Below are positions 4,331-34,291 of a DNA stretch of 64,000 nt, one piece after another. How positions within the stretch are numbered: the first letter of the stretch is position 1; each line of letters begins with the position of its first letter. The position numbers were made by a program, and so were the translations under genes. Under the pieces are notes generated by a model that was given only the letters and a program-made list of their open reading frames with translations, was not told the origin of the DNA and searched no databases. This DNA is from a phage. The stretch lies in sequence record PZ452579.1; one strand, given 5' to 3'.

Positions 4331-4801
4331 TTAATCATGTTTCCACACCCCATCGGTATTTGACCAAAGTCTCTGATTATCTGATCCTCGCCACAGTTTT
4401 TTGGTCGGAAGATTTTTCTCATACTTCCCATCAATAATAACATCAACATATTTAAGCATTTCTAGTTGTTTAATATCTTCAAACTTATATCCTGTCCACA
4501 ACCAAATGCTTTTATTGGGATAAAGATTTTTTACTGTTTGAACAATGCAATGAATGACGTCTCGATTGTCAGGATAGAGAGGGTCTCCTCCGGTTATAGT
4601 CAATCCTTCTATATAATCATTATTCAAATATTCAATCAATTGTTCTAGTGTTTCACCGGTGAATGGAATACCATTTCTAGCATTCCATGTTGATTTATTA
4701 TAACACCCTTCGCATTTATGCAAACAACCTGTAACGAAAAGAACGACCCTGCAACCAGGGCCATTCACAAAATCGCAAGGATAAAATCTATCATAATTCA
4801 T
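4331..4801 (-). CDS. nrdG: anaerobic ribonucleotide reductase activating protein (radical SAM)
   Basis: CxxxCxxC motif (CLHKCEGC) near N-terminus; 156 aa; directly downstream of nrdD with 4-nt overlap. Confidence 0.9.
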   Translation of the reverse strand: MNYDRFYPCDFVNGPGCRVVLFVTGCLHKCEGCYNKSTWNARNGIPFTGETLEQLIEYLNNDYIEGLTITGGDPLYPDNRDVIHCIVQTVKNLYPNKSIWLWTGYKFEDIKQLEMLKYVDVIIDGKYEKNLPTKKLWRGSDNQRLWSNTDGVWKHD

Positions 4802-6615
4802 TGATGCTTAACCCTATGCATGATTTCTTTATTTTTACCGAGATTAAATCCGCGTTCGTTCGGATTTCCCAAATAACCGCATGTTCTTCTTATGGTGTTC
4901 ATCTTTTTAGGATCAGTTTCTCCGCAAACTGAACAAACAAATCCGTTTTCAGTAGGAGTCATTTCATGGGTACTTCCACATGTAAAACATTTATCTACCG
5001 GCATGTTAACACCAAAATAATCTAAATGTTGTGCAGCATAATCCCATACGGCCTCAAGACCTTTTAAGTTATTTTTCATATCGGGAAGTTCAACATAAGA
5101 AATGTGACCGCCGGTCGCAATGAAATGATATGGTGCTTCACGAGAAATCTTTTCAAACGGAGTAATATTTTCTTCTACTGAAACATGGAAACTGTTAGTG
5201 TACCAGCCTTTATCGGTAACATCCTTTACACTTCCATATTTTTCTGTATCGAGTTTACAGAAGCGATAACAAAGGTTTTCAGCAGGAGTCGAATATAAAC
5301 TAAAAGCAAATCCAGTTCTTTCAGTCCACTGTTTAAGATGAGCATTCATTTTAGTTAAAATTTCTCGTCCAATATCACGTCCGACAAGAATATTCAATTC
5401 GTGAATACCAATGTATCCCAAAGACACTGAACTTCTACCGTTTTTAAATAACTCAATTATGTCGTCATCAGGTTTAAGACGGACCCCGAATGCACCTTCT
5501 TGGTAAAGAATAGGAGCAACAGTAGCTTTAACTCCTTTTAGGGAACTAATTCTACACATCAAAGCTTCAAAACACAAATCCATTCGTTCATTGAATAATT
5601 CAACAAATTTCTGTTCATTGAACTGTGTTCCAATATAAGAATCTAACGCGATGCGAGGAAGATTCAGTGTTACAACACCAAGATTATTACGTCCATCAAG
5701 AATTTCATTACCAGTCGAATCTTTCCATACGCTCAAGAAACTACGGCAACCCATTGGAGAAACAGGAACAGATGAACCAGTGATAGCTTTATTGTTCTTA
5801 GCTGAAATAATATCAGGATACATTCTTTTGCTTGCGCACTCTAGAGCAAGCTGTTTAATATCATAGTTCGGATCATCTTTATAAAGATTAACACCTTCTT
5901 CAACAAACATAACAAGTTTAGGAAAAATAGGAGTTATTCCATCACGACCAAGACCTTTAACACGATTTTTCAGAATTGCTTTCTGAATCATTCGTTCAGT
6001 CCAGTCAGTTCCCGTACCAAATGTAATTGTTACAAAAGGAGTCTGTCCGTTTGAACTAAAGAGAGTATTTACTTCATATTCATAAGCTTGGAATGCATCG
6101 TATACGTCTTTTTCTGTTTTAGATTGAGCATAATTCAACGTATCAGCGATTTGCCATTTTTCTGCATCCTCAATATGTTTTGCATAGGTGCGTTTAACAT
6201 AAGGAGAAAGTACTTTATCTACATTAGCAAAAGTCGTTCCGCCGTATTGGTGAGAAGCAACCTGTGCAGTAATTTGTGCCATAATTGCAGTAGCAACACC
6301 AATCGATTTAGGCGTTTCAATCTGCGCATTACCTAGCTTAAATCCGTTTTCAAGCATTCCTTTTAAATCTACTAAACAGCAATTAGTAAATGGAAGAGCA
6401 GGGGAATAATCAATATCATGGAAATGGATAATTCCGCTTTCATGCGCTTTCATAATAAAAGACGGGACCATATTTTTGGCAATGTGTTTAGACACAATAC
6501 CAGCCATAAGGTCCCGTTGAGTTGGAAAAACACGAGAATCTTTATTAGCATTCTCGTTTAAAAGGTCTTTATTAGTTTTATGAATCAATCCTTCAATTTC
6601 TTTTTCAATTGTCAT
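4798..6615 (-). CDS. nrdD: anaerobic ribonucleoside-triphosphate reductase
   Basis: 605 aa; C-terminal glycyl radical motif RRTCGYLG and CxxC...CxxC zinc site; uninterrupted ORF. Confidence 0.95.
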   Translation of the reverse strand: MTIEKEIEGLIHKTNKDLLNENANKDSRVFPTQRDLMAGIVSKHIAKNMVPSFIMKAHESGIIHFHDIDYSPALPFTNCCLVDLKGMLENGFKLGNAQIETPKSIGVATAIMAQITAQVASHQYGGTTFANVDKVLSPYVKRTYAKHIEDAEKWQIADTLNYAQSKTEKDVYDAFQAYEYEVNTLFSSNGQTPFVTITFGTGTDWTERMIQKAILKNRVKGLGRDGITPIFPKLVMFVEEGVNLYKDDPNYDIKQLALECASKRMYPDIISAKNNKAITGSSVPVSPMGCRSFLSVWKDSTGNEILDGRNNLGVVTLNLPRIALDSYIGTQFNEQKFVELFNERMDLCFEALMCRISSLKGVKATVAPILYQEGAFGVRLKPDDDIIELFKNGRSSVSLGYIGIHELNILVGRDIGREILTKMNAHLKQWTERTGFAFSLYSTPAENLCYRFCKLDTEKYGSVKDVTDKGWYTNSFHVSVEENITPFEKISREAPYHFIATGGHISYVELPDMKNNLKGLEAVWDYAAQHLDYFGVNMPVDKCFTCGSTHEMTPTENGFVCSVCGETDPKKMNTIRRTCGYLGNPNERGFNLGKNKEIMHRVKHQ

Positions 6616-14157: not shown

Positions 14158-15156
14158 TCATTTATAATACGAATTGTGGTTTTCTAAGTAGACTTGCTCA
14201 AGGAAATCATCCCAGAAACTCATATCTACTTTTTGTTGCATACCGTTCTTAGCGGCTTGTTCTGATGCTTGTTCAACTTGTTCAACTTGTTCAACGATAT
14301 CTTCTAGGAATTCTTGCACAGTTTTAAACGTATGTTTACCAAGCTTAACATCGAGAATAAATGGAGCATCCTGAAGTGGGTAAACCAGGTCGCCGGTTTT
14401 GTAAATTTCCAATAGTTGAAGTCCACCACGGCATGCATGACTCAATGCTTTCCAATCAATACCTTCATTGGCTTCTGCCTTACGAGCACGTTCACCGTAG
14501 TTCTCTTCAAGTTTAACCAGGATGGCATTGAACTCTTTGTTAGTTAACGTATCTTGGAATTTACGGTCCAACAGACTATAGAATGTTTGCTTACCTGTTT
14601 TCTCGTTTTCAGTTTCAACCCATGAAGCAAATTCACCTATAGGCAGAACATTCTTCATATGTGATAAACGAATTACTGCACCGTTATCAAAGTATTGTCC
14701 CCATTCATTAGAACGTTTAAGGGCTTGACGAAGAACAGCCAGTCGAGAACCCTTGACACCGTATTTAGAAGCTTGCTTACGGACATACCCTAAATAAGAT
14801 TTCATGTTAGTGGTATAGAAACGAGACCTGTTATCTTGAATATACTTCCATACATCAGGCAAATCAGATTTAACTACTAGACTTTGTGGAGTGTGAAGCA
14901 TATCTAATGCGACGGTTTCACCATCCGCAGCTAGTTTAAAGAAATATTTGAGACTATACAACTCATGGTCTACGTCGTCTTTTGTGTTCTTAGAAGATGT
15001 GTTATTCGTGTTCTTGCTCATGTGTTCTTTAACGTTACCGGTCAAGATATCACGAGCATGAGGGACATAAATTTCTTTAAAATCGACGTCAGATTCAGGA
15101 GTAGACGTTCCATAAAGGTGGCTACCAAAGTAGCCTTTCATAATTGTTTTCATCAT
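14158..15156 (-). CDS. nucleotidyltransferase-fold protein (Pol-beta superfamily motif GS-x9-SDVDF)
   Basis: N-terminal GYFGSHLYGTSTPESDVDF; 332 aa; ATG overlaps upstream stop (ATGA). Confidence 0.65.
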   Translation of the reverse strand: MMKTIMKGYFGSHLYGTSTPESDVDFKEIYVPHARDILTGNVKEHMSKNTNNTSSKNTKDDVDHELYSLKYFFKLAADGETVALDMLHTPQSLVVKSDLPDVWKYIQDNRSRFYTTNMKSYLGYVRKQASKYGVKGSRLAVLRQALKRSNEWGQYFDNGAVIRLSHMKNVLPIGEFASWVETENEKTGKQTFYSLLDRKFQDTLTNKEFNAILVKLEENYGERARKAEANEGIDWKALSHACRGGLQLLEIYKTGDLVYPLQDAPFILDVKLGKHTFKTVQEFLEDIVEQVEQVEQASEQAAKNGMQQKVDMSFWDDFLEQVYLENHNSYYK

Positions 15157-24525: not shown

Positions 24526-24807
24526 CTATTTTTCTGAAGCGCCTGAAATATATTTTTCAAGTCGTTGCTTCATTAGCGAGCCGTTCTTAGCGATTTCTTC
24601 CGGTTTATCGCACATACGTAACAAGGCTTCAAGCTTAGCGATATCGCTGGTACGTTCAAATTTGCGAGTATCTATCTTACTAGCAAGTTCAGAAATACGT
24701 GCTAATAGACTTTCGGCTTCAACCAAAGCTGCACCTAGCTTAGTTGCAAATGTGTCAGTAGCTTCGTTAAGAATAGATTCTGATAAAAATTCACTATATG
24801 TTTTCAT
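24526..24807 (-). CDS. internal-protein-like, leader [10 protein letters not shown]
   Basis: ATG overlaps lysozyme stop (ATGA); leader matches IP consensus. Confidence 0.65.
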
Positions 24808-25292
24808 ATATACGCTTTCCAAGTTCCTGTTTTAAATGTTGAGATTACGCGTTTCGCGCGATTAGGTGTCTGACGATACCATTTAGATTGGGCTAGATTT
24901 ACTGCCGCCTCGTCCCAACGTTTCTGTTGAAGCATACGAAGAGAATTAGTAAAACCGGCGACGCCTGCTACACCCATTTGGAAGACCATATTGACCAATG
25001 CACATCGACGAACCGCATCTAAAGAATCATATACCGGTTTAAGTTTAGCATTACCCAAGATTCCGCGAACGGCTTTATCAACGTCTTCATTAAATAGCTT
25101 TTCAGCCTCATCAAGGGTAATTGTACCGTTGCATTTACGTCCGATCATTCTGTCAAGTTCAGCTTTAGCTACGGCTAAAGACGGGTTCTTTGTTACTAAA
25201 TGGCCTATGCCAATCGTCCAAAAGCCTTCAGTGTCTTTGTATAAAGTCAGTCTAAGACCTTCGTCATTACGAAGCATTTCAAATATATTCAT
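24804..25292 (-). CDS. e: lysozyme (endolysin)
   Basis: 162 aa from [31 protein letters not shown]...; matches recalled T4 lysozyme; SD GGAGG. Confidence 0.9.
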
Positions 25293-25326
25293 AATACCTC
25301 CCACGTTTATAGGAGGTATTTATTAC

Positions 25327-25785
25327 TTATAGGAGGGTAGTGAGCACCTTATATAATGATTTGCCCATTACATATTCCCATTGAGAAGGTTTAATTAAAG
25401 CGAATGCATCAAATTCAGGAATCTGTCGTCCGTCTGGGAATGTATGATAGGAATTACAAACACTGTTTCTGAATTGCTCGTGCTCTACAGGGATGGTATA
25501 TTGGAACAGATGAATATTCTTATTGTCTGAGTAATGATGTTCACCTAGGTCTTTCAGGAAGGCAGGGTCATATTGTGTAAACCCAGTTTCTTCTTCGCAT
25601 TCACGAATAGCGGCTTCAATAGGAGATTCGCCAGGTTCGACACGGCCTTTAGGAATATCCCACCGATGAGCTAATGCACCTTTAGGACGAGAACCAGTTA
25701 CACGCCCCATGAATAATTCTTTATCTTCGGTAAGGAAAATAATACCGGCTGATAGTTCTTTCACTTTATTTTTCTTACTCATCAT
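25327..25785 (-). CDS. nudE: Nudix hydrolase
   Basis: Nudix box GRVEPGESPIEAAIRECEEETG; 152 aa; T4 e.1 position. Confidence 0.8.
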   Translation of the reverse strand: MMSKKNKVKELSAGIIFLTEDKELFMGRVTGSRPKGALAHRWDIPKGRVEPGESPIEAAIRECEEETGFTQYDPAFLKDLGEHHYSDNKNIHLFQYTIPVEHEQFRNSVCNSYHTFPDGRQIPEFDAFALIKPSQWEYVMGKSLYKVLTTLL

Positions 25786-26026
25786 CTCGGTCCCATGATT
25801 TGGCCATTAATTCGGACATAAATTCTTCAATACGCGTTTCTTTAGATGGACTTTCACTATTAGAGACCGCAAGTTTGTAATCTGCAATAGGACAGAACAT
25901 ATCAAGGTCCATATTAAGGTCGTCTTTGATTTTTTCTTCTGACACATCTTTATCGTATGTGTACAGATAACTATCACATGATTCTGATTTAATGTAAATT
26001 GCTATACTCATCTCAAATTCCTGCAT
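25775..26026 (-). CDS. hypothetical acidic protein (83 aa)
   Basis: ORF. Confidence 0.5.
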   Translation of the reverse strand: MQEFEMSIAIYIKSESCDSYLYTYDKDVSEEKIKDDLNMDLDMFCPIADYKLAVSNSESPSKETRIEEFMSELMAKSWDRDDE

Positions 26027-26487
26027 TCGGTAATAAAACGTTCAACTTCATTATTCTTGGCTTTTATCTTGTCTTTATGTTCTTGTAAACTACTTTTAAC
26101 AAGATTAATAATGATGCCTACAGCACCTCCACCAATAATACCACCAATAATACTTACGATAGTAGATGCTAATACGATAGCGATAATATCTAGTACAGCA
26201 AAGGCACTTACTTTAGTACTAAAAAACCATACCGACGGTACAAATATAATCCATCCTGTTATCCATTGACACTTATTGAAAAACTTTTCAAGCTCAGCTT
26301 GAGTTGTTCGTATTACTTCATCGATAGGTTGATATCCATTAATGTATCTGTTCACGATAATACCTGCTGGCTGGTCGATTTTAAATTCTTGGCAAATATG
26401 TTTCACTAAGTAGGATGGACATCCTGTCCAATCTACTGAATAATACGAAATACCTTCGTTGCCATCATCTATATTATTGTTAATCAT
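26008..26487 (-). CDS. membrane protein (159 aa)
   Basis: Hydrophobic segments incl. Gly-rich IIGGIIGGGAVGIII. Confidence 0.55.
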   Translation of the reverse strand: MINNNIDDGNEGISYYSVDWTGCPSYLVKHICQEFKIDQPAGIIVNRYINGYQPIDEVIRTTQAELEKFFNKCQWITGWIIFVPSVWFFSTKVSAFAVLDIIAIVLASTIVSIIGGIIGGGAVGIIINLVKSSLQEHKDKIKAKNNEVERFITECRNLR

Positions 26488-27173
26488 TACCAGCCTTCCA
26501 TAGGGAATTCCAGATAAACTTGAGCGTTGACACGAATTTCATTGGTAATCTTTTTAACTCGGTCTGTATTACGAGATACACGCCCGAACCAACGCCATCC
26601 ATTACTAATTGCACGAGAACCAGTGTGCCATGTTTGCCAATCAAACTGAAGAAGAGTACGGTCTGGAGCTTCCCATTTCTCTAGTTCGCCTTTTTCGATT
26701 TTTTCGAGGACTTCTTTGTGCCACTGACGATAGATAAGTTCGCCATCAGGAATCTGACTGAACTCTGCAGTTCCTGTTGCAAAATGAGTAGGACACACAT
26801 CAGCGTTAACAAGACCAAGAATATGTTCAGAATGGTAACGAGGGTTGTCATAATCAGGTTGTCCTGCAGTAATAAAGTGTTGACCAACCGGAATATCCGG
26901 GCGTGGTACATCGTCATGGTGATATCCAGGAATAGCAGGGTACCAACCAGGCATCAGCATGTGGACTCGTGAATCAAATACAACCTGGTCGGTGTTCCAA
27001 TCATCCGGCAAGTTCATGATAAAGCTACGAGTAATTGGGCCGCCATTATCAAAAGCAAAATTCAAATCGCAGTTAAAGAACATAGGCTCGTTTTTAATCT
27101 GGTCGTTTTTAATCGCATGAGCAAAACCACCTACTGCACGAGCTTGACTATTAAACACTTTAGAACTATTCAT
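26487..27173 (-). CDS. hypothetical protein (228 aa) with His/Asp-rich motifs
   Basis: PGYHHDD...YHSEH segments; function not assignable by eye. Confidence 0.55.
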   Translation of the reverse strand: MNSSKVFNSQARAVGGFAHAIKNDQIKNEPMFFNCDLNFAFDNGGPITRSFIMNLPDDWNTDQVVFDSRVHMLMPGWYPAIPGYHHDDVPRPDIPVGQHFITAGQPDYDNPRYHSEHILGLVNADVCPTHFATGTAEFSQIPDGELIYRQWHKEVLEKIEKGELEKWEAPDRTLLQFDWQTWHTGSRAISNGWRWFGRVSRNTDRVKKITNEIRVNAQVYLEFPMEGW

Positions 27174-27174
27174 A

Positions 27175-27480
27175 TTATTTTCCTCGACATTCTTTAATGA
27201 AATTTTCTAGATTGGTAGATTCAATAGCTTTTTTACGAGCTTCTGCGTGTTCTTCTTCAGACAATTTACGTTTATAATTGACCCAGACATTATGGTCGAA
27301 ACTAGTCGTGGCATATAATAACAAAGCTCCGACGAATAATAAAAACGGTGATAAGAATACAAAACCAGGAACACCATCCATACTGTAAGCCTTTTGTAAT
27401 ACTGCAACAGAAAGAGTTGCGTAAAAAAGTGATGCAAATATTGTTAAAAGACCAATTCGGTTGGTTTCGCCTAATTTCAT
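27175..27480 (-). CDS. membrane protein (101 aa)
   Basis: Two hydrophobic segments. Confidence 0.55.
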   Translation of the reverse strand: MKLGETNRIGLLTIFASLFYATLSVAVLQKAYSMDGVPGFVFLSPFLLFVGALLLYATTSFDHNVWVNYKRKLSEEEHAEARKKAIESTNLENFIKECRGK

Positions 27481-27508
27481 AATATTCTCCTCATGTTTTA
27501 ATAGGACT

Positions 27509-27538
27509 ACTATAACATAATCCTATAATTGTGTAAAC
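27509..27538 (-). promoter_or_regulatory. early promoter cassette (PeSL-like)
   Basis: -35 GTTTAC, 18 nt, -10 TATAGT on minus strand. Confidence 0.55.
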
Positions 27539-27550
27539 AGTTTTGCGAAA

Positions 27551-28507
27551 TTATTTGAAAGGTTTTACCATATGGAAATTTTGTTTGAAACGTTTGACGT
27601 AATCGTCATGTCCTAAGCTTTGGTACATACTTACTACTTTGCTGTAGTTTTCCCAGGCATACTCACGGAACCAACCGGAGGTGATGCTTGTACAGACTTT
27701 TTCCAATGCCATCATGAAACTGGCTTCAGGGTTAATTTTAAAGTCATTAGGAATTTGAGAACGTTCTAATGCTAGTACACATGATTCTTCGTATACACCA
27801 GCCAGTTTAATCATTTCCGGTAACGATTCGAACTTCTCGCGTGAGGTCATGACTTCAGAACCGTCTTTCATATAAAATGTATACGCTGGACGGTCTGTTA
27901 GTGCAATGGCTTCGTGAATAGTATCATGGTCATATGTATAGATGTCATCTTTAAAGAACGCACTTTTAGAAGTGTCAAGAACTGGGTGAGCATAGTTCAA
28001 GGTTTCTTTCTGGCGTTTCAGCATAATTTCAGTAAGTTCATCGTTCAGTGTAACACCTTTACCACGAAGATACTGAATATGGTTCATAGTCTTTAAAAAG
28101 AATGGATTATTTTTCTTGAAACGATGAGACATCTTAATTGCAAGACATATCTCAGGAGTTGCCCAGTAAAACCCGTTCAAACGGTCTTTAGTCAAATTTT
28201 TCTTGGCGTATTTTAAAAGGTCATAAGAAGACGTGAAATCTTCGGGAGTGAGTTCACCAACTAATTCACGGACATTAGTGATTGCCGGAACAATATATGC
28301 TTCAAAATGAGTTTCGCGTCCATTATGGAAGCATTTGAAAACTTGGACATCAGGGTTATCTTGGTGGACATATACACCCATCATTTGATTTTTGAATGCA
28401 TTCCAAGAACATTGGTCCGCAATAAAGTCCCAGTCACTATTTTTGATAGCGCTAGAATCAATAAGACCATGATAGTGAAGTGCACGAGAACCAATAACTA
28501 ACATCAT
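27551..28507 (-). CDS. nucleotidyltransferase-fold-like protein (GS-x17-SDWDF)
   Basis: N-terminal VIGSRALHYHGLIDSSAIKNSDWDF resembles motif of 14158..15156; 318 aa. Confidence 0.55.
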   Translation of the reverse strand: MMLVIGSRALHYHGLIDSSAIKNSDWDFIADQCSWNAFKNQMMGVYVHQDNPDVQVFKCFHNGRETHFEAYIVPAITNVRELVGELTPEDFTSSYDLLKYAKKNLTKDRLNGFYWATPEICLAIKMSHRFKKNNPFFLKTMNHIQYLRGKGVTLNDELTEIMLKRQKETLNYAHPVLDTSKSAFFKDDIYTYDHDTIHEAIALTDRPAYTFYMKDGSEVMTSREKFESLPEMIKLAGVYEESCVLALERSQIPNDFKINPEASFMMALEKVCTSITSGWFREYAWENYSKVVSMYQSLGHDDYVKRFKQNFHMVKPFK

Positions 28508-28535
28508 AATATTTTCCTCGGATTAATTCATTAAC

Positions 28536-28775
28536 TTAAATTTCACGACATGCGATATTATATTCATCCCAGAGGTCATCATGTGAAGCCTCTACCAATG
28601 GAACGATTGTACCGTTTATGTCTTCATTATAAGGGCAAATTGTACAGTGCGCATCTTCGAATCGGATGCCTTTGTGTTCAGATTTTTTATAACGCATATC
28701 GAATATCTTTGCAAACTTTTCACGAGTAATGGTTTTAGCAACCACTTCGGTTCCAATACTTTCGTAATAAATCAT
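28536..28775 (-). CDS. hypothetical protein (79 aa)
   Basis: Start at ATG (MIYYESIG...) after SD GGAG. Confidence 0.5.
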   Translation of the reverse strand: MIYYESIGTEVVAKTITREKFAKIFDMRYKKSEHKGIRFEDAHCTICPYNEDINGTIVPLVEASHDDLWDEYNIACREI

Positions 28776-28803
28776 TGTGGACTCCATTTAATTTGATAGG
28801 ACT

Positions 28804-28833
28804 ACTATAACATAGCCCTATCTTGTTGTAAAC
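28804..28833 (-). promoter_or_regulatory. early promoter cassette (PeSL-like)
   Basis: -35 GTTTAC, 18 nt, -10 TATAGT on minus strand. Confidence 0.55.
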
Positions 28834-28837
28834 TGTT

Positions 28838-29035
28838 TTAGCAAGAATAACTAGATGATACCCAGCCTTGAACAGTAATACTATTATTTGATAACGAGAT
28901 TGCGTCCTGGAGATTCAGACCTGCGTTATCTTCAATCCATAATGTAACTTCTTCGCGTTCTTCTGTTGCAATTTGGAACAGGTTTTCCAGAGCAGCTACT
29001 GCCGTACGTACAGCACAATCTAATTCACGAGACAT
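28838..29035 (-). CDS. Cys-tail family member 1 (65 aa; ends GWVSSSYSC)
   Basis: Shares C-terminal motif with the next two genes. Confidence 0.55.
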   Translation of the reverse strand: MSRELDCAVRTAVAALENLFQIATEEREEVTLWIEDNAGLNLQDAISLSNNSITVQGWVSSSYSC

Positions 29036-29044
29036 ATGGTTTCC

Positions 29045-29317
29045 TTAGCAAGTGTGAGAAGATGCAACCCAACCGCCATCTTCAAGGCTCAAGTTGTAGT
29101 CGTATTGGTAAACGTCAGCCCATTCAGCATAGCCGTTTTTTGTACAACGTTCAAGATCGGCTTTAAGATGTCCGGGTGAATGATAGGTTCCACCCATACC
29201 ATAAGCTGGATACAAGTCGAATGTTGTGTTTTGTTTATCAGCAATTTCTTTGGCGGCCTCAATAGCTGCATAGATTTTTGCTACAGCTTCAGCCAGTTCG
29301 GTTTGTTCTTTAGACAT
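29045..29317 (-). CDS. Cys-tail family member 2 (90 aa; ends GGWVASSHTC)
   Basis: Shared IADxQ...YG-G-TY and C-terminal tail with 29327..29632. Confidence 0.6.
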   Translation of the reverse strand: MSKEQTELAEAVAKIYAAIEAAKEIADKQNTTFDLYPAYGMGGTYHSPGHLKADLERCTKNGYAEWADVYQYDYNLSLEDGGWVASSHTC

Positions 29318-29326
29318 AATAATTCC

Positions 29327-29632
29327 TTAGCACAACGCAGAAGACGAAACCCAAGCACCTTCAGTAATAACGTAACCATTACCTTCACGCTTAACATCGC
29401 CACCATTATTTTCAATTTCATCTTTCATCCACTGGGATACGATTTCACCCTTAGGATAATAAGTACGACCGCTACCATAATCACCTACAGAAAATGATAC
29501 GGCATATTGGTCTGCGATCTTTGTTGCTTCTTCTTCGATACGTTCAGCTTGATTCAGAAGTTTATAAATTGCATCTGAAGCGGATTTGGCATCATTAAAC
29601 TCTGGCACTTTAATTTCAATAATCTTACTCAT
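29327..29632 (-). CDS. Cys-tail family member 3 (101 aa; ends GAWVSSSALC)
   Basis: Paralog of 29045..29317. Confidence 0.6.
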   Translation of the reverse strand: MSKIIEIKVPEFNDAKSASDAIYKLLNQAERIEEEATKIADQYAVSFSVGDYGSGRTYYPKGEIVSQWMKDEIENNGGDVKREGNGYVITEGAWVSSSALC

Positions 29633-29730
29633 TTTCTACATTCCTTAATAAAGTTTTCGATTGTTTCATTTTCACGTTTAGCTAGGAGTTCATTATAACT
29701 AATCATTTGAGAAGCGTAAACAGCATAAAT

Positions 29731-30123
29731 TCAGTTCAGGCTTTTGCATCTTATCTCCTTAACGAATTCCATGGCTTCGTCATATTCATACTTTTTAACA
29801 GCTTCATCATACTGAGCTTGGGCTTTTGCACATTGAATTTTCCATTCGCGTACTCGAGCTCTATAATGACGTCCTTGGTACCAATATCCCACCCAATTAA
29901 TAGGCATTAATAAAAATGGCACAATAAACGACCCGGCTATAATAAGTAAAAACACTGCATCAGACGATATAACTTCACTAGAATCTAAAACAGCTCCTAT
30001 AATCATAAGGATTAAAAATGCTAAAGCTAAAATAGGGCCAAATAGTACTTCGTTTGGGATTAATTTACGTTTGTATTCGTATGCCCAGGGCTTAATTGGC
30101 ATGTACAGGGTTGGCTTTGACAT
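29731..30123 (-). CDS. membrane protein (2 TM)
   Basis: Start at ATG (MSKPTLYMPIK...); hydrophobic segments. Confidence 0.5.
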   Translation of the reverse strand: MSKPTLYMPIKPWAYEYKRKLIPNEVLFGPILALAFLILMIIGAVLDSSEVISSDAVFLLIIAGSFIVPFLLMPINWVGYWYQGRHYRARVREWKIQCAKAQAQYDEAVKKYEYDEAMEFVKEIRCKSLN

Positions 30124-30694
30124 ATTCTCTACATTCCATAATAAATTGCTCAAGGATTAAATTGTTAGTGAAATTAGGACTAACAACCATAGTTTCATAA
30201 AGCGCATCAATAGCACTTAAAGCATCAACTCTTTTAAGCAAAGGCTTGCCTTCATACATAGTTTCAGAATCGATGATTAACGTAAAGTAATATTTTTTAT
30301 TATCGACTAGAACTTCTGTATCAATATAAAACATATTAGACCTCAGAAGCTTATCTCTAAAACCATAATAATCTTTAGAGCGTTCGCTGATATATTCCCA
30401 TTCAGTGTTTAAACAACAAACAGACCATGTAGGAGCAACGAAATCGGTGAATCTAATATCATGGTCTGCAACTAGTTTAGCAATAGCTCCGATATCATGA
30501 ATCATAATACCTGGGGCTAATAAAGATTTTCTGCTATGGCTAGCCGTTTTCTCAGTAGTCTCATAAGAAGACGACCAGTACCATTTACGTCCAGTTGCAA
30601 CATATCGTAATGAATCAACTAAAGACGTAGGTGGATTTACCTTATCTCGGAACTCTTCGAACATTGAGTCAATATCATTATTTTGGTTTCGCAT
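30092..30694 (-). CDS. hypothetical protein (200 aa)
   Basis: Start at ATG (MRNQNNDIDSMFEEF...) 5 nt after SD GGAG. Confidence 0.55.
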   Translation of the reverse strand: MRNQNNDIDSMFEEFRDKVNPPTSLVDSLRYVATGRKWYWSSSYETTEKTASHSRKSLLAPGIMIHDIGAIAKLVADHDIRFTDFVAPTWSVCCLNTEWEYISERSKDYYGFRDKLLRSNMFYIDTEVLVDNKKYYFTLIIDSETMYEGKPLLKRVDALSAIDALYETMVVSPNFTNNLILEQFIMECREYVKANPVHAN

Positions 30695-30710
30695 GTTAAC
30701 TCCTTTATTA

Positions 30711-30735
30711 TCCAAAAGGAGGACCGGAGTCCTCC
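30711..30735 (-). terminator. hairpin GGAGGAC-n4-GUCCUCC followed by UUUUGG
   Basis: After stop of 30744..31337. Confidence 0.5.
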
Positions 30736-30743
30736 GTATTATT

Positions 30744-31337
30744 TTATTTCAAAGAGTTAATATATTCTTGTACATCAGCAGAAGTGGTTTCGACACCGGC
30801 TGGAGTGCCATTGAACGTTTCAACACGAGTCAGAGTGTCTTCGATATCAACCTTAGTCAGTGCAGCGATTTCAATTACATCATCAGCCGTAGAGATACCA
30901 AGGGCATTGGCTGCTCGAGTTTCACGAATGTATTCGAGTTTGATTGCCAGGTTCTGACGAGCATCGTCAAGTTCAACCACCTTACGAGCAATTTCAATTC
31001 GCATAGCGGCATACCCGTCAGCTTTTGTATTAAGTTGTTCGGCAGTTCGACGATACAGAAGACCAAGCTTAGCATGCATGGTAACATCTTGTCCTTCGGC
31101 CAGGAGCTTACGAATTTCACGTTCCTTAGAAGCGGCTTGCTTGTTCTTTTCATTAACAAGTTCGCGAATACGTTTTTCTTCATTAATAGATTTAACAGAA
31201 GCCGTTTTTAGTTCTTTGATTTGGGTAATCAACTTATCTGCAGCTGCGTTATACTGTTCTTCGACAGTCAGATTTTTAGCCATAGCAGTACCCAGTTTAG
31301 TGCGGATGAATTCAACAAGTTTCTTCAGTGTGTTCAT
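30744..31337 (-). CDS. coiled-coil protein (197 aa)
   Basis: Start at ATG ([10 protein letters not shown]...); track M1 is TTG; long helical heptad-like sequence. Confidence 0.55.
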
Positions 31338-34134: not shown

Positions 34135-34211
<77 letters not shown>

Positions 34212-34217
34212 AATATA

Positions 34218-34291
34218 TGACCCAGACCAGATTCGAACTGGTAACCTTTCCCTTATGAGGGGACTGCTGCTAACCATTGAGCTACAGGGCC
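34218..34291 (-). tRNA. tRNA with CAU anticodon (Ile2-like or Met)
   Basis: 5' end and T-arm resemble E. coli tRNA-Ile2; anticodon loop CTCATAA; imperfect acceptor and D stems. Confidence 0.55.

Follow-up and report, generated by a model that had tools for sequence, protein, structure and literature searches.

What does the gene at 27551..28507, on the minus strand of the window (the whole stretch of 64,000 nucleotides of phage DNA that was analysed), encode, and with which partners would its product work? A sequence-only reading had seen in it a second nucleotidyltransferase (NTase)-like gene, with an N-terminal motif similar to that of the gene at 14158..15156, and had taken the two as a sign of a family under diversification. 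As far as the open reading frame is concerned, this reading is accurate: the gene runs from an ATG start over 318 codons to a stop, its product begins exactly with MMLVIGSRALHYHGLIDSSAIKNSDWDFIADQ, and a ribosome-binding site, GAGG, is located 9 nt 5′ of the ATG. The position assigned to it, in the block between gene e and the tRNA genes, is also right: the lysozyme gene e (24804..25304) lies on one side and the tRNA-Arg/tRNA-Met pair (34135..34291) on the other. The source phage is of the T-even type and belongs to the RB69 group (Mosigvirus). Escherichia phages vB_EcoM_G2469 and RB69 match bases 25000-31000 of the window at 97-98% identity, and the gene, referred to below as the enzyme gene because of its predicted activity, is the orthologue of RB69ORF134c, its product being 99.4% identical to what the RB69 record calls a ‘hypothetical protein’.

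A predicted nucleotidyltransferase with a large helical domain

The protein contains two Pfam families, DUF7277 followed by DUF7275, both above the gathering score: in the Pfam scan, with a cut-off of 27 bits for each, DUF7277 matches amino acids 2-101 (96.7 bits) and DUF7275 amino acids 120-305 (265.4 bits). It belongs to phrog_2141 (E 4.5e-150). Full-length homologues are found in 734 phage records from many genera, the hosts of these phages being Escherichia, Acinetobacter, Aeromonas, Pseudomonas, Vibrio, Klebsiella, Gordonia, Streptomyces and others, and a word-indexed search brought 2212 homologues. The family amounts to 1601 clusters at 50% identity, and the best 150 of these are nearly all full-length, at ∼300 aa. 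Among 185,579 bacterial and archaeal species genomes (one per species) only five loci were found, all on MAG contigs; the family is essentially viral, i.e. phage-restricted. One homologue, in Klebsiella phage vB_KpnM-VAC36, is misnamed ‘prohead assembly scaffold protein’.

The predicted structure of the enzyme (pLDDT 93.3, pTM 0.87) has at its N-terminus, over amino acids 1-115 (28163..28507, minus strand), a minimal core of the pol-beta type, made of strand 1, a GS pair, a helix, strand 2 with a DxD motif and three further strands. This alpha/beta core superimposes, as modelled, on known pol-beta-like NTase members; the best fold match of the enzyme is MenT1, and Foldseek gave the same top fold matches, with weak E-values. 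In an alignment of 52 homologues, which are 47-75% identical to the target, I5-G6-S7 is invariant and is modelled between the strand of amino acids 2-5 and the helix of amino acids 6-12, so that the G6-S7 codons (28487..28492, minus strand) would specify the hG[GS] motif of NTases at the strand 1/helix 1 junction. D25-W-D27-F is likewise invariant in the 52 sequences; the D25-W26-D27 codons (28427..28435, minus strand) specify two putative metal-binding carboxylates where strand 2, modelled as amino acids 26-31, begins. The candidate third catalytic carboxylate is E69 (codon 28301..28303, minus strand), on the strand of amino acids 64-73.

A pattern of the form G[ST]-x9-20-D-x-[DE] occurs within the first 45 residues of 3 out of the 83 ORFs in the window that reach 100 aa, and the target and the 14158 gene account for two of the three. 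Since G6, S7, D25, D27 and E69 are all invariant in the 52 homologues, the motif of the target is not a chance match, and these residues read as the hG[GS] / DhDh / third-carboxylate signature of pol-beta-type NTases. The likeness to the 14158 protein pointed out in the sequence-only reading does exist (G6-S7-x17-D25-x-D27 in the target, G11-S12-x10-D23-x-D25 in the other), but the target's longer spacer is hardly a variant: 17 residues is the mode in its family, where the spacer ranges from 9 to 21. With this signature and the pol-beta fold of the model, the claim that the gene is NTase-like holds. Amino acids 1-115 form a catalytically intact and apparently active minimal NTase of the MenT/AbiEii/ANT(2″)/Lnu structural kind, and judging from alignment and model together it is very likely that the enzyme is an active NTase.

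Among PDB sequences, the enzyme has no relative with a solved structure. Two assignments were considered and dropped. One was to a known defence or anti-defence system, for which PADLOC gave no match and NCBIfam nothing significant (its sole match, hisJ_fam, has 17.8 bits against a cut-off of 90.2 bits). The other was a role in the synthesis of the arabinosyl-hydroxymethylcytosine of RB69: the cluster concerned, RB69p048-053, is located elsewhere and its sugar-nucleotidyltransferase has a different fold.

The rest of the protein, amino acids 116-318 (27554..28162, minus strand), is modelled as an all-helical domain, with DUF7275 over amino acids 120-305. The model indicates that this domain is specific to the family and that its first helices extend the helical lobe of the NTase; the remainder has no match among solved folds. 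It is in this domain that most invariant residues of the enzyme lie, at about 50 positions in the 52 homologues, among them K125, H128, K139, T140, R165, E168, H174, H194, D195, H198, E240, E241, E248, R249, K270 and a TSITSGWFR loop. An HD-domain phosphohydrolase, which the series H128 ... H194-D195 ... H198 had suggested, was dropped because the helical fold of the HD superfamily is not found. The idea of a free-standing DUF7275 in actinophages turned out to be wrong: in Beuffert gp203 and Engineer gp16 the N-terminus is compact but still has GS...DxD, and short actinophage members (251-263 aa), in which GS...DxD is retained, are compact versions of the full enzyme. Most IMG/VR loci with a tblastn match to amino acids 116-318 alone also encode full-length two-domain proteins. 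In one protein of 308 aa (P0054, on a 3-kb contig) a lipoprotein-like N-terminus (PF06693, DUF1190) replaces the NTase core in front of a normal DUF7275; this may be an assembly chimera.

Small acidic proteins encoded beside the enzyme

The most informative feature of the locus was absent from the sequence-only reading: the enzyme gene is linked to genes for small proteins that share a C-terminal tail. Three of them are present in the window, all on the minus strand. Small tail protein 1 (28838..29035; 65 aa, pI 4.05; RB69ORF136c, phrog_4882) ends in ...QGWVSSSYSC-stop. Small tail protein 2 (29045..29317; 90 aa, pI 4.7; RB69ORF137c, phrog_899) has an AYGMGGTY motif and ends in ...GGWVASSHTC-stop, and small tail protein 3 (29327..29632; 101 aa, pI 4.6; phrog_899) has a DYGSGRTYYP motif and ends in ...GAWVSSSALC-stop. 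Among the 940 open frames of the window, exactly three end in such a tail, all of them directly upstream of the enzyme gene. The third gene is a single ORF here; at 4875-5181 of locus L001, which represents the RB69 record AY303349, it is split into ORF139c and ORF138c (71 and 33 aa). This points to a frameshift in the reference record, or to an error made in sequencing it.

The small tail genes are separated from the enzyme gene by a gene for 83 aa (28536..28787, minus strand; phrog_3723), which is probably co-transcribed with the enzyme gene; from 29632 to 27551, no terminator-like site was found on the minus strand. Outside the T-even-like lineage, the family of this gene was not seen to recur beside the enzyme. 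Directly 3′ of the enzyme gene lie 26487-27173 (minus strand, 228 aa; RB69ORF132c, phrog_1843), which has an HHDD-containing sequence and is without a Pfam match, and 27175-27480 (101 aa, phrog_9798), with a weak match to a PHROG annotated ‘membrane protein’; neither recurs beside the enzyme outside the T-even-like lineage.

The extent of the linkage was evaluated on 80 IMG/VR enzyme loci from 24 lineages, taken with flanks of 10 kb on each side, in which all flanking ORFs were clustered. By far the commonest neighbour family is that of the small proteins, encoded directly upstream on the same strand. An HMM of the small family, iterated once and run over the 80 loci, gave 174 matches, all on the strand of the enzyme gene and 170 of them within 2.5 kb upstream, while the remaining ones are located just downstream or ∼3 kb upstream. 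At least one small tail protein is present in 71 of the 80 loci and in 18 of the 24 lineages, with one to five copies per locus, in tandem. For the reverse test, IMG/VR was scanned with a back-translated DNA pattern of the YGMGGTY motif of the small family: an enzyme gene adjoins the small gene in 32 out of 32 true-family loci with enough downstream sequence, and in none of the unrelated matches to the motif. The pair is seen in Straboviridae, Phapecoctavirus phAPEC8 (enzyme gp77, small proteins gp78 and gp79), Otagovirus phiPsa300 (gp147 and gp146), Acinetobacter phage PhaR5 (gp119 and gp122) and jumbo contigs of ∼360 kb. The linkage also survives rearrangement, since in phage Moby the two tail proteins (gp091 and gp092) are encoded downstream of the enzyme gene, gp089, whereas in the window the small genes are upstream. 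The enzyme gene and one to five co-oriented genes for small acidic proteins constitute a conserved module, and it is likely that the enzyme is functionally coupled to the tail proteins. In 6 of the 24 lineages, and in the actinophage members, no tail protein was detected near the enzyme, so that there the enzyme would work without an adjacent partner or use another acceptor.

Two further observations were made on these loci. A protein of 377 aa (P0346) looked like a natural fusion of a small protein with the enzyme and was rejected as such; it most likely results from a TGA stop read as Trp (...PAC-W-QKGKH-VLLIGS) and thus most likely shows adjacency of the genes, not fusion. Outside the T-even-like group (loci L039-L092), the enzyme gene is often found, by our reading of the sequences, among genes of nucleotide and NAD metabolism: ribonucleotide reductase large and small subunit-like (7 and 4 lineages), ThyX-like, Nampt-like (5 lineages) and metallophosphatase-like (5 lineages). 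In Moby, a Nampt is annotated 3.3 kb upstream of the enzyme gene.

What do the small proteins have in common? They are strongly acidic (median pI 4.4, as compared with 6.4 for the enzyme) and have a median length of ∼88 aa. No Pfam domain was found in 159 homologues, and comparison with the sequences of solved structures gave low-complexity helical matches only. Their sole universally conserved feature is the C-terminal tail, for which the consensus is W-x-[S/A/P]-S-[S/A]-x-x-Cys-COOH; W(-7), S(-4), S(-3) and the final Cys are given as invariant across lineages, with the proviso that the consensus admits A at -3. Of 100 distinct tails, 98 end in Cys-stop. The tail is conserved at the protein level, because its serine codons alternate between TCN and AGY and both TGC and TGT are used for the cysteine; for the same reason the possibility of a DNA-level repeat or regulatory cassette was dropped. 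Several of the small tail proteins are misnamed ‘tail completion protein’ in databases.

There is, besides, a second type of tail-bearing protein, of ∼145 aa, ending in ...AWCSSSMEC or ...HAWCSSSMIC, which the HMM of the small family missed. In loci L054, L055, L057 and L080 its gene lies on the strand opposite to that of the enzyme gene and 4-6 kb away from it, and in L051, L058 and L059 it is 1.1-1.5 kb upstream of the enzyme gene. This type occurs in enzyme lineages 4, 6 and 11, and in lineages 6 and 11 it is found in place of the small family. Since a different protein bears the same tail in these three lineages, the tail seems, from the sequences, to act as a portable tag on unrelated bodies.

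What the enzyme may act on

The explanation that we favour, with a probability of about 0.45 for the whole of it, is that the enzyme is a two-domain phage NTase that acts on, or docks, the tails of the linked small proteins. With an NTP bound at the GS/DxD/E site, it would transfer NMP, or else a phosphate, as is known for some of the MenT toxins, to an acceptor with a hydroxyl or thiol group. The best candidate for this acceptor, or at any rate for an element used in docking, would be the Ser/Cys tail that is invariant among the co-encoded proteins; the highly conserved DUF7275 domain would hold it, and the variable bodies of these proteins would be alternative cargo or effector modules, modified or activated by the enzyme early in infection. 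The tail is the most economical candidate for nucleophile or docking element because nothing else is common to small proteins with different bodies, and it is a candidate acceptor because it places chemically reactive residues at a free C-terminus. Precedents for the chemistry point in the same direction: ANT(2″) and LnuA, the nearest relatives of the enzyme in structure, O-nucleotidylylate hydroxyl groups. Another is provided by MenT3, which is inactivated via phosphorylation of its active-site Ser78 (PMC10435456). The pI of the enzyme weakly disfavours a nucleic-acid substrate. Even so, the linkage of the genes would be explained just as well by a role of the small proteins as inhibitors or regulatory subunits, the lineages that have no tail protein nearby tell against the explanation, and that the tail itself is the substrate is a tentative proposal, about which we are somewhat doubtful.

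If the tail is indeed modified, the NTase would activate a tail serine through transfer of NMP or phosphate, and DUF7275 would keep the tail in place and perhaps carry out further processing. Such processing might consist, for example, of elimination and addition of the Cys, giving a cyclised tail, or the product might be a nucleotide-protein conjugate; the elimination/cyclisation step we infer purely from the chemistry of the invariant S-S...C. Through the modification, a set of small acidic proteins that can replace one another would become active effectors of host takeover or counter-defence. That enzyme and small proteins form in this way a phage-specific system of protein-tail modification not previously described is rather unlikely on present evidence. 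The MntA-HepT type VII toxin-antitoxin offers a parallel, in that a minimal NTase AMPylates its partner protein. The likeness lies in a minimal pol-beta NTase having as its substrate the product of the adjacent gene, a role that is only proposed for the small proteins here. The target has no match to the MntA model of NCBIfam, its partner is no HEPN RNase, and the modification is proposed to fall on a C-terminal Ser/Cys tail, where that by MntA falls on a Tyr.

The main rival, which we hold to be unlikely, is a MenT-like toxin with its inhibitor. The enzyme would then add nucleotides to the 3′ ends of tRNA (or of other RNA) as MenT1, MenT3 and MenT4 do; selected host tRNAs could be disabled while the phage supplies its own, or tRNA ends could be repaired or marked, and the small acidic proteins would plug the active site as MenA1 does on MenT1. 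The fold ranking, with MenT1 as best match, favours such a function, and so does the gene order, as MenT1 is a tRNA-modifying toxin with a small inhibitor, MenA1 (68 aa), encoded upstream (PMC10435456). However, MenT1/MenA1 (Rv0078A/Rv0078B), MenT3 and MenT4 of Mycobacterium tuberculosis are DUF1814 / AbiEii toxins, whereas a Pfam scan of the target down to E 1 gave DUF7275 and DUF7277 only, with no match to DUF1814/AbiEii (PF08843). The active sites can also be compared. In MenT1 and MenT3 the pairs are K137/D152 and K189/D211, i.e. the Asp (motif IV) follows the Lys of motif III by 15-22 residues (PMC10435456). A candidate counterpart of this Lys in the enzyme is K125, which is invariant and lies on the first helix past the core, but none of the acidic residues between K125 and E168 is invariant, and the nearest conserved Asp residues, D193 and D195, are 68-70 residues downstream. 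Membership of the MenT family therefore fails, both for want of a DUF1814 match and for want of a conserved Asp at the motif IV spacing. In addition, the target has a 200-residue helical domain of unmatched fold where the C-lobe of MenT sits, and its family is phage-restricted whereas MenT is a chromosomal toxin-antitoxin.

The partners do not fit this rival well either. One to five paralogous ‘antitoxins’ that carry a conserved Ser/Cys tail of eight residues and no binding helix are unlike known antitoxins; for MenA1 the C-terminus is dispensable (PMC10435456), unlike the conserved tail that marks the partners of the target, and lineages without small proteins would bear an unopposed toxin. 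Nor is the enzyme as a whole electropositive (pI 6.4). As for the neighbouring tRNA genes, they are found near the enzyme gene in RB69-like phages, in Moby and in Gordonia phage Engineer, but among the 80 IMG/VR loci a tRNA within 10 kb is limited to the T-even-like synteny group, which is a single lineage, and to 4 of the 52 other loci, a frequency that we judge to be close to chance for large phage genomes. A functional link to the tRNA genes was dropped on this ground. In the window, two ordinary tRNAs only are called; in another locus, L013, with an enzyme 97% identical to the target, ARAGORN reports at 4381-4474 a third tRNA-like gene, with anticodon tta (‘tRNA-Stop’), beside tRNA-Met/tRNA-Arg.

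Another possibility, which we consider improbable, is that the enzyme modifies a small molecule (a metabolite, an antibiotic-like compound or an immune signal) in the manner of ANT(2″) and Lnu, and that the small proteins are unrelated, co-regulated neighbours. The resemblance to ANT(2″)-Ia (AadB, 4xje) and LnuA (4wh5) is one of fold only: there is no Pfam or NCBIfam match of the target to the aminoglycoside or lincosamide NTase families, and the target differs from them in its size, which is double theirs, in being encoded by phages and in having protein partners of its own. Its extra domain of 200 residues, with ∼50 invariant positions, far exceeds the small helical lobe of ANT/Lnu. The linkage to tail proteins is near-exclusive both ways across very divergent phages and survives changes in gene order, for which it is difficult to account unless enzyme and small proteins share a function.

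The last explanation is the original one, in which the target and the 14158 gene diverge within one NTase family expanding in variable blocks; in spite of the GS...DxD at both N-termini, the similar length and the pol-beta NTase fold of both proteins, it deserves next to no credit, for BLASTP between the two proteins finds no relationship (best E 5.7), the profiles of the two families align in hhalign with a probability of 0.28%, the C-terminal halves are unrelated, and full-length orthologues of each gene are conserved across many genera, in hundreds of phages. The 14158 protein belongs to RlaP (PF10127, E 1.8e-12) and to phrog_388, ‘nucleotidyltransferase’, as against DUF7277/DUF7275 and phrog_2141, and the target has no PF10127 match in the Pfam scan. 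Full-length orthologues of the 14158 protein are present in 1521 phage records, including Tequatrovirus at 77% identity; the best 120 homologues listed for it are only 97-98% identical ones, and for the profile comparison the alignment of its family was built from a diverse set taken from phage records. Both genes being old, conserved and widespread, a diversifying family is not supported. The similarity of fold expected in the sequence-only reading is nevertheless there, and the two are branches of one superfamily that separated long ago; they are not paralogues of recent origin. They differ also in their surroundings: the three tail-bearing ORFs of the window all adjoin the target, and no tail-protein partner was found for the 14158 gene. 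In many database records, NTases of the 14158 type are misnamed ‘thioredoxin’.

Significance for the phage family

The enzyme gene belongs to a catalogued, uncharacterised family, DUF7277/DUF7275, and its NTase core is of a known kind. Literature searches on DUF7275, DUF7277, PF23940, PF23942, phrog_2141, RB69ORF134c and phage NTases with a C-terminal cysteine found nothing relevant, and the combination of a phage-restricted NTase, a large conserved extra domain and linked W-x-S-S-S-x-x-Cys proteins appears to be undescribed in the literature searched. An anonymous ORF thus becomes the subject of a concrete two-component hypothesis, built on an intact NTase signature, a large conserved domain and the linkage to tail proteins. 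The family, which is present in T-even relatives used as models and in therapy among others, is annotated only as ‘hypothetical’ or by DUF number, and the present work corrects misleading database names, both for homologues of the enzyme and its partners and for the 14158-type NTase. The MenT/AbiE toxins known so far belong to anti-phage or toxin-antitoxin elements of bacteria, and should the small proteins be inhibitors, the enzyme would be a phage-borne relative of these toxins. If, on the other hand, the tail is the substrate, the module would represent a new kind of phage-encoded protein modification.
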